A DNA stretch of 39,917 nucleotides from Pseudomonadota bacterium (GCA_963205375.1 CAUJJV010000020.1:1-39917); one strand, 5' to 3'; positions 3,580-35,348 are shown, counted from the stretch's first letter. Numbers and translations: made by a program. The notes: generated from the sequence alone by a model not told the origin.

Positions 3580-4788
3580 TCAGGACTGCGCTCCGCCAGT
3601 CTGACGAAACGGATTTCGATCCTCCAAGTCCTGTAAATACTGGGCAACACCCGCGCCTTCACGTTCCAGAAAGTGGGATACCGCGTCTGAAAATGCCGGG
3701 TGTGCCAGCCAGTGCGCACTGCTGGTCCTGACCGGCAACAGGGCGCGGGCCATTTTGTGTTCGCCCTGTGCACCCCCCTCAAAGCGCTGGAATCCGTTCG
3801 CGATACACCATTGGAGTGGCTGGTAGTAGCAGGCTTCAAAGTGCAGGCAGTCTACGGGCTCCAGCGCACCCCAGTAGCGGCCATAGGCTATCTTGGTGGA
3901 TTCAGTGCCATTTTGGCCTCTAGCCCCCGTGGAATGTGCGTCAATAGCTATCAAACTGCTAGCAATGCTCTGTCCATTGCGCTGTGCGACGAAGAGCAGC
4001 CAGTTCTCTGGCATGGTGCTCTCTATGCGGCTAAAGAAGTCCCGGGTGAGGTAAGGCGGGTTACCGTGCTCCAGGTAGGTCCGCTCATAACAGCGGTAGA
4101 AAAAATCCCAGTCCTCGGTGGTGATTGCGCTGCCCTGTACCTGCCGGAAGGTGACGCCGGCATCGGCCACCTTGCGCCGTTCCTGCCGGATCTTCTTGCG
4201 CTTGTCCTGGGCCAGGGTGGCCAGAAATGCATCGAAGTCAGCGTAACCGGGGAATGTGTTGGTCCAGTGAAACTGCACCGTATGGCGCAACATCAGGCCC
4301 GCGTCAGCGCATGCTGCCAGGTCCTCTTCCGCCGCAAACAACAGGTGCAGGGACGATACGGCTTGTTGCTTGCACCAAGCGATGAGTGCGTGCACCAGAG
4401 CCGTTCGCGCCGCGTTGTCACGGGCCAGCAGGCGAGTGCCTGGAACCGGAGTGAAGGGCACGGCCACCACCGCTTTGGGGTAGTAGGGCACACCATGCTG
4501 GCGATAGGCGCTGGCCCATGCTGAATCGAATACGTACTCGCCGTAGGAATGGTTTTTGAGGTACACCACGCAGGCGGCTTCCAGAGCGCCATGGCGTTCC
4601 AGGGTGATGAAGTAGGGCGCCCAGCCGGTGGCTGCACAGGCGCTTTGGCTGCTGTGCAGCGCCGCCAGGTAGGCGTGGCGCATGAACGGGCTGGGCTGGG
4701 ATTGCTTTTGTAGCAGAGCATCCCACGCAGACGCATCCACCTGGGACGGCAGTGTTTGCACCCGGATGACATAATTGCCGCTACCCAT
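3580..4788 (-). CDS. GNAT/FemAB-like protein (DUF482 type)
   Basis: HSYGEYVFD, VPFTPVPG, YGRYWG, LHFEACYYQ and FEGGAQGEHKMAR motifs. Start uncertain. Confidence 0.88.
   Translation of the reverse strand: MGSGNYVIRVQTLPSQVDASAWDALLQKQSQPSPFMRHAYLAALHSSQSACAATGWAPYFITLERHGALEAACVVYLKNHSYGEYVFDSAWASAYRQHGVPYYPKAVVAVPFTPVPGTRLLARDNAARTALVHALIAWCKQQAVSSLHLLFAAEEDLAACADAGLMLRHTVQFHWTNTFPGYADFDAFLATLAQDKRKKIRQERRKVADAGVTFRQVQGSAITTEDWDFFYRCYERTYLEHGNPPYLTRDFFSRIESTMPENWLLFVAQRNGQSIASSLIAIDAHSTGARGQNGTESTKIAYGRYWGALEPVDCLHFEACYYQPLQWCIANGFQRFEGGAQGEHKMARALLPVRTSSAHWLAHPAFSDAVSHFLEREGAGVAQYLQDLEDRNPFRQTGGAQS
3901..3964 (+). repeat. Spaced-motif repeat, copy A (in frame inside the GNAT gene, antisense orientation)
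   Basis: TTCAGTGCCATTTTGGCCTCTAGCCCCCGTGGAATGTGCGTCAATAGCTATCAAACTGCTAGCA; aligns without gaps to the other four copies. Confidence 0.85.
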
Positions 4789-4850
4789 GGTGCGCCTTCT
4801 GCGCAATGGCCGTGCTTCTGGTGCGGCTGTGAACAAAATATTGCTGGTTC

Positions 4851-6527
4851 ATGACTCTCAAACTGTGCGTTGCCCAACTCAACTTCATCGTCGGTGATCT
4901 GGACGGGAACGTCAAAAAAATTGTCGATGCAGCCACCCAAGCCTATGCCGAGGGCGCGCGCCTGCTGCTGACACCGGAGTTGTCCATTTGTGGCTACGCG
5001 GCGGAAGACCTGTTTTTGCGCCCCGCGTTCATCGCCGCCTGTGATGATGCCGTGAAAGCAGTGGCCTGGCAGACCGCCGGGTTAAAAGGCATGGCCATCG
5101 TGGTGGGCCACCCCACGGGTGGGGACAGTCGTACCCGCTCGGTGGCGGTACAAAGCCGGTTCAATGCGGCCAGCGTCCTGCGCGAAGGGCAGGTGGTCGC
5201 CACCTACGCCAAGCGGGAATTGCCCAACTACCAGGTATTTGACGAGCGCCGGTATTTCACGCCCGGGCAGGGCGTGTGTGTTTTTGAGGCCGGTGAGGCG
5301 GAGAACCTGGTGCGGGTCGGCCTACTGATTTGTGAGGACGCCTGGTTTGAAGAGCCCGCGCGGCTGGCCAAAGAGGCGGGGGCGCAGATGTTGGCCGTCA
5401 TCAATGCATCGCCTTTCCATGTGGGCAAAGGCTACGAGCGCGAAGAGATGATGGCGCAGCGCGTACGCGCCACCGGGCTGCCGATGGTCTACGCTCATCT
5501 CGTGGGTGGGCAGGACGAGGTAGTGTTTGAGGGCCATTCATTTGCGCTGAACGCGGACGGATCTGTGGCTGGTCGGGCACCGAGTTTTAAAGGAAATCTG
5601 TTTCCAGCCCTCGTCTATCTTGCGCAGGGTGCTATAAAAATTGAAGCATCTATCGAGCCGGTGCGTACCGCCGAAACCGACCTGTGGGACGCTCTGGTGC
5701 TGGGTGTGCGCGACTACATTGGAAAAAACGGCTTTCCGGGCGTGTTGCTCGGCCTGTCGGGTGGGATTGACTCCGCACTGGTGCTGGCCATTGCGGTCGA
5801 TGCATTGGGGCCGCAGAAGGTGCGCGCCATCATGATGCCGTCGCCCTATACCGCCGATATCAGCTGGATTGACGCCCGTGACATGGCGCAGCGCATGGGT
5901 GTCCGGTACGACGAGATTTCCATCGTGCCCCAGTTCGAGGCCTTCAAGGCGTCTTTGGCCCAGGAGTTTGCCGGGCGACCGGAGGACACCACCGAAGAAA
6001 ACATCCAGGCCCGCATCCGCGGCACACTGTTGATGGCGCTTTCCAACAAGTTTGGCAGCATCGTGTTGACGACCGGAAACAAGTCCGAGATGGCCACCGG
6101 CTACTGTACTCTCTACGGCGATATGGCAGGTGGTTTTGCGGTCATCAAGGATCTGGCCAAAACTCTGGTGTTCAAGCTGGCGCGCTGGCGCAATGCGCAC
6201 GACCCGTATGGAACGGGCCAGAGTCCCATTCCAGAGCGCATCATCACCCGTCCGCCCAGTGCGGAGTTGCGTCCTGACCAGAAAGACCAGGACAGTTTGC
6301 CGCCCTACGAGGTGCTGGATGCCATCGTGGAACGCTACATGGAAAATGACCAGGGAATCGAAAGCATCGTCGCCGATGGCTTCGCCCGGGAAGATGTCGA
6401 GAAGGTCACCCGCCTTATCAAAATCAACGAGTACAAACGCCGCCAGGCGCCTGTGGGAATTCGGGTGACCCACCGCAGCTTTGGCAAGGATTGGCGTTAT
6501 CCTATTACCAGTCGCTTTCGGGCCTGA
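4851..6527 (+). CDS. nadE: Glutamine-dependent NAD+ synthetase
   Basis: N-terminal nitrilase-like domain (PEL, KRELPNY, ICEDAW) plus LGLSGGIDS, ENIQARIR and PPSAEL. Confidence 0.97.
   Translation: MTLKLCVAQLNFIVGDLDGNVKKIVDAATQAYAEGARLLLTPELSICGYAAEDLFLRPAFIAACDDAVKAVAWQTAGLKGMAIVVGHPTGGDSRTRSVAVQSRFNAASVLREGQVVATYAKRELPNYQVFDERRYFTPGQGVCVFEAGEAENLVRVGLLICEDAWFEEPARLAKEAGAQMLAVINASPFHVGKGYEREEMMAQRVRATGLPMVYAHLVGGQDEVVFEGHSFALNADGSVAGRAPSFKGNLFPALVYLAQGAIKIEASIEPVRTAETDLWDALVLGVRDYIGKNGFPGVLLGLSGGIDSALVLAIAVDALGPQKVRAIMMPSPYTADISWIDARDMAQRMGVRYDEISIVPQFEAFKASLAQEFAGRPEDTTEENIQARIRGTLLMALSNKFGSIVLTTGNKSEMATGYCTLYGDMAGGFAVIKDLAKTLVFKLARWRNAHDPYGTGQSPIPERIITRPPSAELRPDQKDQDSLPPYEVLDAIVERYMENDQGIESIVADGFAREDVEKVTRLIKINEYKRRQAPVGIRVTHRSFGKDWRYPITSRFRA
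5585..5648 (+). repeat. Spaced-motif repeat, copy B (in frame inside nadE)
   Basis: TTTTAAAGGAAATCTGTTTCCAGCCCTCGTCTATCTTGCGCAGGGTGCTATAAAAATTGAAGCA; divergent, but all block positions are kept. Confidence 0.75.
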
Positions 6528-6546
6528 TTTTTTATTGGACTAGCAG

Positions 6547-34206: not shown

Positions 34207-35256
34207 ATGACTGTGGCTCAACAGGTTTTGATCGTCGATGACACTGAAATCAATCTGATTCTTTTTGCAGCCCTTGTCAAAAAACTTGGGGATTGCGAAT
34301 CCCACAGTTTTTCCGATTCCCGTGCTGGACTGGCGTGGGTGCAGCAATATGTGCCGGACCTCGTCATCGTGGATTACATGATGCCGGAGATGGATGGCCT
34401 GGAGTTCATCCGCTTGCTCCGGGAAATCCCCGGTCGCGAGGCTATTCCGGTGTTGATGATCACGGCCAACGACCAGAAGCAGATCCGTTACCGCGCACTG
34501 GATATCGGGGCCAACGACTTTTTGACCAAGCCGGTGGACAAGGTCGAGTTCCTGGCACGTGCCAAGAACATGCTGACACTCAACGATGCGCGGAAAAAGC
34601 TGGCGGACCAGGCGGCCTGGCTGGCCGAAGAAGTACGCAAGGCGACCCATGAAGTGGTGGAGCGTGAGCGCGAAACCGTGATTCGCCTGTCCAGAGCGGC
34701 CGAATTCCGTGATCCAGAAACCGGTGCCCATATTCTGCGCATGGCCCATTTTTCGCAAATCATTGCGCGCGGAATGGGGTTGTCGGAGAGCGATCAGTAT
34801 CTGTTGCTGGAAGCTGCGCCCATGCACGACATCGGCAAAGTGGGCATCGCAGACAAGATATTACTCAAACCCGGACGCCTGGAGCCCGAGGAGTTTGAAA
34901 TCATGAAACGCCATGCCACGATCGGTTACGAGTTGCTCCAGGGCAGCTCGTCGCGGGTTCTGCAGGCAGGCGCCGAGATCGCCCGTGGCCACCATGAAAA
35001 GTTTGATGGTTCCGGGTACCCGCAAGGACTCAAGGGCGAGGATATTCCGATCTTCAGCCGCATTGTGGCCGTGGCCGATGTGTTTGATGCGCTGACATCC
35101 GAGCGGCCCTACAAAAAAGCCTGGGACGTGGAGGCTGCCGTCGATTTTTTGAAGGCGGGCTCCGGCAGCCACTTCGATCCTGCGTGCGTCACGGCATTTC
35201 TGAATGCCTGGAGTGATGTGCAGGAGGTTCGGGCACGCTACAGCGAAGAAGCCTGA
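34207..35256 (+). CDS. Response regulator with HD-GYP c-di-GMP phosphodiesterase domain (RpfG-like)
   Basis: REC domain (IVDD, VDYMMP, TKP), then ETGAH, HDIGK, HHEKFDGSGYP and DVFDALTSERPYK. Confidence 0.95.
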   Translation: MTVAQQVLIVDDTEINLILFAALVKKLGDCESHSFSDSRAGLAWVQQYVPDLVIVDYMMPEMDGLEFIRLLREIPGREAIPVLMITANDQKQIRYRALDIGANDFLTKPVDKVEFLARAKNMLTLNDARKKLADQAAWLAEEVRKATHEVVERERETVIRLSRAAEFRDPETGAHILRMAHFSQIIARGMGLSESDQYLLLEAAPMHDIGKVGIADKILLKPGRLEPEEFEIMKRHATIGYELLQGSSSRVLQAGAEIARGHHEKFDGSGYPQGLKGEDIPIFSRIVAVADVFDALTSERPYKKAWDVEAAVDFLKAGSGSHFDPACVTAFLNAWSDVQEVRARYSEEA

Positions 35257-35284
35257 ACCATCCTATTGCCCCCGTGGGGAAAGC

Positions 35285-35348
35285 TGCTATATATTTTATA
35301 GCAATGTACGCAATGTATACGGGGGCTAGGGCGGTATTTACTTGAGAA
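35285..35348 (-). repeat. Spaced-motif repeat, copy E (between convergent genes, overlapping the USP stop codon)
   Basis: Minus strand reads TTCTCAAGTAAATACCGCCCTAGCCCCCGTATACATTGCGTACATTGCTATAAAATATATAGCA, with a perfect TGCTATA-N5-TATAGCA dyad. Confidence 0.85.

Follow-up and report, generated by a model that had tools for sequence, protein, structure and literature searches.

A dispersed 66-bp DNA motif superimposed on genes of Comamonadaceae, a candidate DNA uptake signal

The closest described relatives in kind of the element reported here are the DNA uptake sequences (DUS) and uptake signal sequences (USS), which have asymmetric cores of 9–12 bp, occur in 765–1,892 copies per genome (PMC2817400, PMC4212676) and carry the signatures of in-place evolution and conservation that are seen here (PMC2817400, PMC2397512); in USS the core is flanked on one side by T tracts in phase with the helix (PMC3458573). 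Statements on these and the other papers cited refer to the sections of them available to us. The element is a motif of about 66–67 bp, recognised from five copies in a 39,917-nt stretch of DNA (GCA_963205375.1, CAUJJV010000020.1:1-39917; 'the window') that belongs to a genome of the family Comamonadaceae (G000; 2.76 Mb, 75% complete). Judged from its sequence, it is probably a double-stranded DNA signal that is read by a protein and maintained in place. Like DUS and USS, it is superimposed on coding DNA in preferred frames, is strand-unbiased, is conserved at orthologous and permissive places, is enriched in DNA shared between genomes and has dialects; it further resembles USS in pairing a core with one-sided, helically phased A/T tracts. 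It differs in lacking the inverted pairs that form terminators and in being present in accessory gene arrays and phages.

Fragments of the motif have been published. A 2017 study (Tong, Schliekelman and Mrazek; PMC5217627) reported unexplained spaced pentamer pairs as potential novel motifs, including GCTTAT-N5-AAGCG in Acidovorax ebreus, 140 pairs in Rhodoferax ferrireducens and 106 pairs in Polaromonas naphthalenivorans. The spacings fit the motif exactly (e.g., CTAGC-22-GCTAT, TCTAG-35-ATAGC and CCCGT-29-TAGCA), the bias to convergent gene ends is the same, and the pairs reveal the motif in R. ferrireducens and A. ebreus. They were, however, presented separately; in the sections available they are not assembled into a whole or named, and neither in-place evolution nor a dialect or mechanism is given. 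The first-pass annotation of the window could not tell whether the family had been named; the answer is divided, since the fragments appeared in 2017 as unexplained pairs while a description of the whole element was not found in the literature searched, a coverage from which most subscription journals fell out. The motif is not mentioned in the available text of PMC2755013, and no Comamonadaceae term occurs in the main text, to which the search applied, of PMC3733652. The repeat BRE (PMC3110155) is likewise dispersed in Comamonadaceae with some coding copies, but is about 90 bp, GC-rich, tandem, represented by 4 copies in R. ferrireducens and present in Bordetella, whereas the motif is A/T-phased, never tandem, present in hundreds of copies and was not found above background in the other families searched.

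A search of Rfam returned nothing at gathering level over the copies and nothing to E = 10 for one copy, nor is there a strand-specific RNA structure. The signals matS, KOPS, Chi and HIP1 (8–13 bp, mostly polar or regional) are also under DNA-level selection inside genes, but the motif is long, non-polar and chromosome-wide. Its T-N11-A dyad recalls LysR-type sites, from which it differs in being depleted at divergent spacers. Taken together, the sequence comparisons suggest a dispersed signal superimposed on genes that falls outside the definitions of repetitive extragenic palindromes (REP) with their associated tyrosine transposases (RAYT), of miniature inverted-repeat transposable elements (MITE) and Rickettsia palindromic elements (RPE), of attC sites and of KOPS/matS.

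Architecture of the motif and its copies in the window

The motif carries 57 bits of information and runs 3 bases further right than first noted. With position 1 as the first base of the window copies, it consists of an A/T tract (10–13), TAGC(C/G)C (21–26), TGCGC (37–41) and a dyad, GCTAY-N7-RTAGC (47–63), the centre of which is A/T-rich; T49 and A61, which form the T-N11-A dyad, are 97–100% conserved. A/T content along the motif peaks at a period of 10.5–11 bp. Spacing is rigid, a net indel being absent in 361 of 363 matches to a hidden Markov model (HMM), and the pattern of conserved blocks and free spacers described at first pass is borne out, unchanged when 141 intergenic copies are taken alone. 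The 20 invariant columns (of 64) were confirmed exactly among the five window copies, but over 361 copies only some stay near-invariant; those conserved in at least 89% are GCC.C.G, TG C, GCT and AGC. In copies from other genera the middle block, too, forms a dyad (AGCGCTT-N7-AAGCGC); G000 has lost this symmetry.

There is no sign of a conserved hairpin: compensatory covariation was not detected, and most of the 10 strands examined folded no better than shuffled sequences. Columns depend most strongly on those close to them, no base-pair-type covariation spans the element, and the dyad arms have mirror-image base preferences yet vary independently, pairing if anything below chance (odds ratios 1.13 and 0.43 for positions 51/59; 0.56 and 0.24 for 50/60). 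As first noted, no terminal inverted repeat or target duplication is common to most copies; the best boundary pairs gave a target duplication in 1–2 of 360 copies and 3-bp inverted ends in no more than 10%. The rigid spacing, phased A/T tracts and dyad without hairpin compensation point to a protein site in double-stranded DNA, presumably one bound by a protein of two-fold symmetry that makes additional contacts on one face of the helix. The initial preference for a protein-binding or recombination site over a decaying MITE gains support from the rigid spacing, the few indels and the contrast between core and free positions. A viral sequence (the IMG/VR record behind L170, 51303–51391) contains two opposed copies that share the central dyad and so form a two-armed site that is symmetric throughout.

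The five window copies align without gaps at the positions and on the strands first annotated. Copy 1 (3901–3967, +; 68 bits; dyad 3947–3963) is antisense in a FemAB/GNAT-like gene (3580–4788, −), copy 2 (5585–5651, +; dyad 5631–5647) is sense in nadE (4851–6527, +), copy 3 (20068–20134, +; dyad 20114–20130) is antisense in murI (19771–20604, −) and copy 4 (27640–27706, +; dyad 27686–27702) is sense in a crotonase-like gene (27041–27796, +). These four lie within open reading frames, and, as had been noted, the sense pair occupies one frame and the antisense pair one frame. Copy 5 (35282–35348, −; dyad 35286–35302), correctly placed at a gene end, overlaps the stop codon of a usp gene (35338–35781, −) and takes up most of the spacer between it and a convergent response-regulator gene. 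NadE (NF010588) and MurI (TIGR00067) score above their family cut-offs, the FemAB/GNAT-like and usp-like matches are below cut-off, and the label 'crotonase-like' is a reading of the translated frame. Other features of the window are an ilvH RNA motif (11651–11718) and two tRNA genes (19502–19575 and 19631–19704) found with Rfam, all ordinary, and a cluster (29290–35256) of a NosP/FIST-like sensor, a hybrid histidine kinase and an HD-GYP-type response regulator, all below NCBIfam cut-offs.

Distribution, placement and maintenance in place

An HMM built from the five window copies and an ungapped matrix were run against G000, with the reversed genome as control. The HMM gave 325 matches at E ≤ 0.1 and the matrix 373 matches above 10 bits, each against 0 in the control, so that the hundreds of copies foreseen from the window are indeed present; the total is about 365, a few of them counted twice as the assembly mixes strains. 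Duplicate contig parts, 94% identical, include C91:32230–35339 and C210:1–3111, and likewise C162/C215, C272/C289 and C19/C223; an apparent 1.5-kb composite element on C91/C210 proved to be a strain duplicate of miaB. The copies, about one per 7 kb, are scattered chromosome-wide without fixed orientation and are about 56% alike on average, with a nearest-neighbour median of 73% and no young identical subfamily. Near-miss sites are rare (12 above −5 bits vs. 0–2 in synonymous shuffles; 18 lone right halves).

Between genomes the distribution is all-or-none. Within the same genus, 11 of 24 sampled genomes have 52–426 pattern matches and 13 have 0–1; within the family, 73 of 300 genomes, from about 44 genera by hand count, have at least 10 (controls ≤2); and in other families of the order none of 196 genomes rises above background (≤4 matches). 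A looser pattern keeps the split (106–495 vs. 0–5 matches). Three good copies lie on short contigs (C86 and C65) of a genome of another family, G507, and reflect contamination or recent transfer. The motif also occurs on a Rhodoferax antarcticus plasmid (9 copies of at least 24 bits) and at 27 viral loci that match a strict pattern, some within phage reading frames.

Strand and region were assessed in a related complete genome, G010, of which 1.6 Mb (41%) was examined. The 233 matches (two of which are one site) are spread evenly over both strands and both skew directions, with 53, 51, 58 and 71 copies in four 400-kb stretches, 27, 25, 36 and 34 of them on the plus strand. No strand, replichore or regional bias was seen in this sample, and polarity or clustering of the KOPS/matS type is not supported. 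Pairs less than 500 bp apart are scarce (G000: 3, with 18 expected; G010: 2, with 16 expected), none is paired or tandem below 250 bp, and larger gaps appear random.

By the hexamer-model gene calls made here for G000, in which a few frame assignments may be wrong, 157 of the 365 copies are inside genes, 62 over gene ends, 141 intergenic and 5 at contig edges. One frame accounts for 69 of 83 sense and 52 of 74 antisense in-gene copies, both reading GCT (Ala) at the dyad. The intergenic copies comprise 33 in convergent, 94 in co-oriented and 14 in divergent spacers, the last being avoided (14/141 vs. 329 of all 1,204 spacers), and gene-end overlaps involve about 52 stops and 11 starts, without orientation preference. 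Occupied spacers have a median length of 102 bp (83/141 are ≤120 bp) and are mostly filled by the motif. Orthologues were found for more of the host genes (39% vs. 28%), but conservation is lower (76% vs. 81%, p = 0.001). Motif density is about 2-fold or more higher in shared than in unique DNA.

The sites within genes appear to have arisen in place, over existing codons, rather than as MITE-like insertions. NadE aligns without gaps over the motif to the Acinetobacter structure 5KHA, and its segment is 57 aa in every motif-bearing row shown and in 10 of 14 motif-free relatives (55–65 aa in the others). The murI segment measures 47 aa in each of the 41 rows recovered (from 50 loci), whether they carry the motif (24) or not (17), and it exceeds that of Bacillus enzymes by only about 3 aa. 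For these two genes the first-pass analogy with in-frame insertion of RPE, REP or MITE is not borne out; codons were overwritten and length was unchanged. Among 141 internal coding copies of G000, 54 have an orthologue in the examined part of G010; the site is common to both in 48 and absent in 6, all six with zero net length difference. In the reverse comparison 45 of 51 sites are common and 5 of 6 unshared sites are net zero, making 11 of 12 over both directions. Homologous residues are retained at unshared sites in a chromate transporter, a thiolase and a MurD-like protein (names from sequence reading), and insertion cannot therefore have produced these; a weak site in the conserved thiolase is made largely of rare codons at zero net length. 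Length was gained at some sites: the GNAT copy lies in a loop of 23–66 aa among relatives and the crotonase copy in a loop of 45–51 aa, its segment being 5–11 aa longer than in one motif-free relative.

A second repeat of G000, GC-rich, palindromic, about 100 bp long and in at least 7 copies (C5:3610, C24:5728, C64:1852, C149:207, C200:2936, C209:3459 and C218:27050), does insert in frame, sometimes inside the left arm of the motif (the GNAT site in L009, L011, L024 and L027). By description it may be the BRE of PMC3110155.

Constraint acts on the DNA. The dyad Ala codon is GCT in 30 of 30 nadE orthologues, against 9.9% of Ala codons genome-wide, while adjacent residues vary. Between G010 and G132, which are 87% identical, 36 of 50 examined sites are common and the rest are at or in rearranged or unique DNA; the number cleanly gained or lost between collinear flanks is 0. 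Differences amount to 0–5% at core positions and up to 36% at free positions. At position 25, which falls on the third base of a codon in either favoured frame, 96% of the G000 copies have C and 87% of the G010 copies have G; of the 48 coding sites common to the two genomes, 41 carry this switch. A single base has changed at nearly all sites of a lineage, a 'dialect'.

Candidate readers and competing explanations

Candidate partners were profiled in 40 motif-positive and 40 motif-negative genomes, the sets being verified by pattern counts. The first-pass annotation had suggested a co-occurring RAYT/TnpA, recombinase, competence or nucleoid protein; no candidate profiled tracked the motif. A reverse-transcriptase 'writer' was rejected, being absent from 4 of 5 motif-positive genomes. 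The RAYT-like gene of G000 (C67:37480–37779, L001) is single-copy and upstream of gltB, and most of the family genomes examined have one; downstream of it is a partial dyad-like stretch, and no full copy of the motif adjoins it.

Reading by the natural-transformation machinery is a possible, though not the probable, function. It is favoured here because the drive of biased uptake would explain per-site retention, overwriting of permissive codons and dialect switches without fitness cost, and because these are the reported signatures of DUS and USS. A homodimer would grip the symmetric core, GCTAY-N7-RTAGC, with the one-sided arm (the second GC block and the phased A/T tracts) bent along the protein surface. 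DNA with a better site would be preferentially taken up and recombined, and molecular drive would repair sites and spread them to any place that the protein or gene junction tolerates; a shifted reader preference would rewrite all sites as a dialect, and incidentally the longest conserved block (37–51) would provide micro-homology at which deletions and gene acquisitions are joined. More tentatively, the motif may represent a third, independently evolved sequence-specific uptake system, in Comamonadaceae, with a signal several times longer than DUS or USS, a symmetric receptor, about 150 rewritten proteins per genome, dialects and a joint for accessory cassettes. Natural transformation is on record for Acidovorax temperans, A. 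facilis and Verminephrobacter, and sequence-selective uptake has been reported in this family, for which the sections available name no signal (PMC4212676). In V. eiseniae, uptake depends on type IV pili, and a 1500-fold amount of salmon DNA lowers it only about 10-fold (PMC4212676); Acidovorax is also listed among competent genera (bioRxiv 10.1101/764415). The competence genes of G000 include comEC, dprA, comM, pilQ, comF-like and comEA-like genes, and comEC has 1–3 copies in 10 of 11 motif-positive genomes examined and a partial copy in the eleventh.

Several observations weigh against an uptake role. The motif differs from DUS and USS in its size (66 bp, 57 bits), partly palindromic core and density of about one per 7 kb, which makes it about 6-fold sparser than known uptake signals. 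It is present in accessory DNA (toxin–antitoxin arrays, phage genes and a plasmid), where DUS are reported to be absent. The rarity of intermediate sites leaves the first formation of a full site unexplained, and depletion at divergent promoters fits an intracellular binder equally well. ComEC occurs in 39/40 positive and 40/40 negative genomes and ComP_DUS pilins in 39/40 of each; the comEC sites are common by descent and so not independent; and 4 copies fall in six competence genes and their 500-bp flanks, vs. 1.7 expected (P = 0.08, not significant). For V. eiseniae, the one species with uptake-specificity data, the 2017 table has a single pentamer pair, which does not fit the motif (PMC5217627), and its plasmid, the replicon scanned, has no motif copy. 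In summary, the motif appears to evolve like an uptake sequence, but its size and density set it apart; it is not classed with DUS or USS, and uptake is only a candidate role.

Some copies have taken part in rearrangements. In one chimeric G010 copy the left arm comes from a neighbour and the right flank is that of a uracil-glycosylase-like remnant (joint in 43–51); another is a fusion of two ancestral copies that in relatives flank variable cargo (joint in 37–49). A supposed insertion hot spot was resolved as the two ancestral copies plus one deletion in G010. In G000, five same-strand copies (C228:2269–5581, L361) each bound a gene module, read from sequence as two nucleotidyltransferase/DUF86-type toxin–antitoxin pairs, a hypothetical gene and a methylase fragment; six consecutive same-strand copies bound toxin–antitoxin genes on the R. 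antarcticus plasmid, and Fic genes are among those bounded in the two arrays. Contigs from public runs aligned to C228 gave no credible joint, only cross-mapping of other copies.

Ordinary attC/attI sites occur separately from the motif in these genomes. An integron-integrase-like chromosomal gene adjoins ahpF (G000:C56:190–1272, L037; G010, L043:1117–2145), its stop codon directly adjoining a motif copy in each of the two, and an attC-like sequence lies upstream in G010. At L349:16466–18277, L354:12356–13772 and L228:10876–11625, a leader of about 350 bp ending in an attI-like site is followed by attC-bounded cassettes without an integrase (two copies 99% identical in G132, one of 87% in G010); each unit is within about 130 bp of a motif copy and resembles a separate mobile mini-integron.

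Three other explanations were considered. An intracellular chromosome-architecture site, wrapped over 66 bp by a lineage-specific protein (nucleoid, LysR- or Lrp-like oligomer, or topoisomerase partner) at some 500 directly selected sites, is unlikely, though the following features fit it: the symmetric core with T-N11-A spacing, phased A/T tracts and orientation independence, the bias to convergent junctions and 3' ends, the near absence of pairs below 500 bp, the all-or-none presence per genome and the copies in phages and a plasmid. However, spacing above 500 bp is random with no regional or replichore pattern, HU/IHF is equally present (40/40 positive and 40/40 negative genomes, 80/80 in all), and codon index does not mark the host genes as highly expressed (4 of the top 150 vs. 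8.8 expected); near-perfect per-site retention and a switch at almost every site together would also be harder to obtain by selection than by drive. That the motif is an old, domesticated, non-autonomous mobile element, its coding copies surviving where insertion and matching deletion were tolerated, is improbable. The general features of REP doublets forming hairpins (REPIN) with RAYT, of RPE and of in-frame MITEs served as the comparison, and the motif shares with them hundreds of dispersed copies, a bias to 3' ends and convergent spacers, some in-frame copies and a patchy distribution; the few intermediates, the filled spacers and the longer GNAT and crotonase loops fit as well. Against this stand the lack of insertion in nadE and murI and of any net insertion at most coding sites examined, the lack of terminal inverted repeats, target duplications, pairs or clusters and of a conserved hairpin behind a GTAG/CGTC tag, the absence of long-range linkage of variants or a young identical subfamily, the lack of clean gains and losses between G010 and G132, and the distribution of RAYT-type genes (38/40 positive, 33/40 negative genomes), the one in G000 having no adjacent full copy.

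A site-specific recombination site, with strand exchange between the blocks (43–49) shuffling cassettes bounded by direct copies as in pdif modules and integrons, is very doubtful. The chimeric joints inside the site, the two direct-repeat arrays and the copy abutting the integrase gene would fit, as would the sharing of at least six of seven spacer bases by close direct neighbours in G000 (7/44 vs. 3.2% at random), but this sharing is not repeated in G010 (2/34 vs. 4.2%), and the joints are only two and lie in the longest conserved block, so that micro-homology explains them. Enrichment at borders of shared and unique DNA is weak (4/32 with a copy vs. 1.5 expected), the apparent hot spot has dissolved, and about 150 copies are within genes, many of them essential, in random orientation. 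Moreover, the motif lacks the GTT/AAC core (GTTRRRY and RYYYAAC in integron sites), position 59 being never T and position 51 almost never A; most copies bound no cassette; and no integron integrase was among the matches of motif-positive G081 and G132.

Implications for the family

With about 500 sites, some 40% of which lie within proteins (NadE, MurI and ComEC among them), a 57-bit signal constrains a genome heavily, and the family that carries it is dominant in freshwater, soil and wastewater. The clean split, hundreds of copies in some genomes and none in their close kin, is a ready design for finding the reader. An architectural or recombination role would point to a new DNA-binding protein. 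If it is an uptake signal, Comamonadaceae would be only the third such family named, its DNA selectivity would be directly testable, and the motif could raise transformation efficiency in environmental strains that are hard to engineer.

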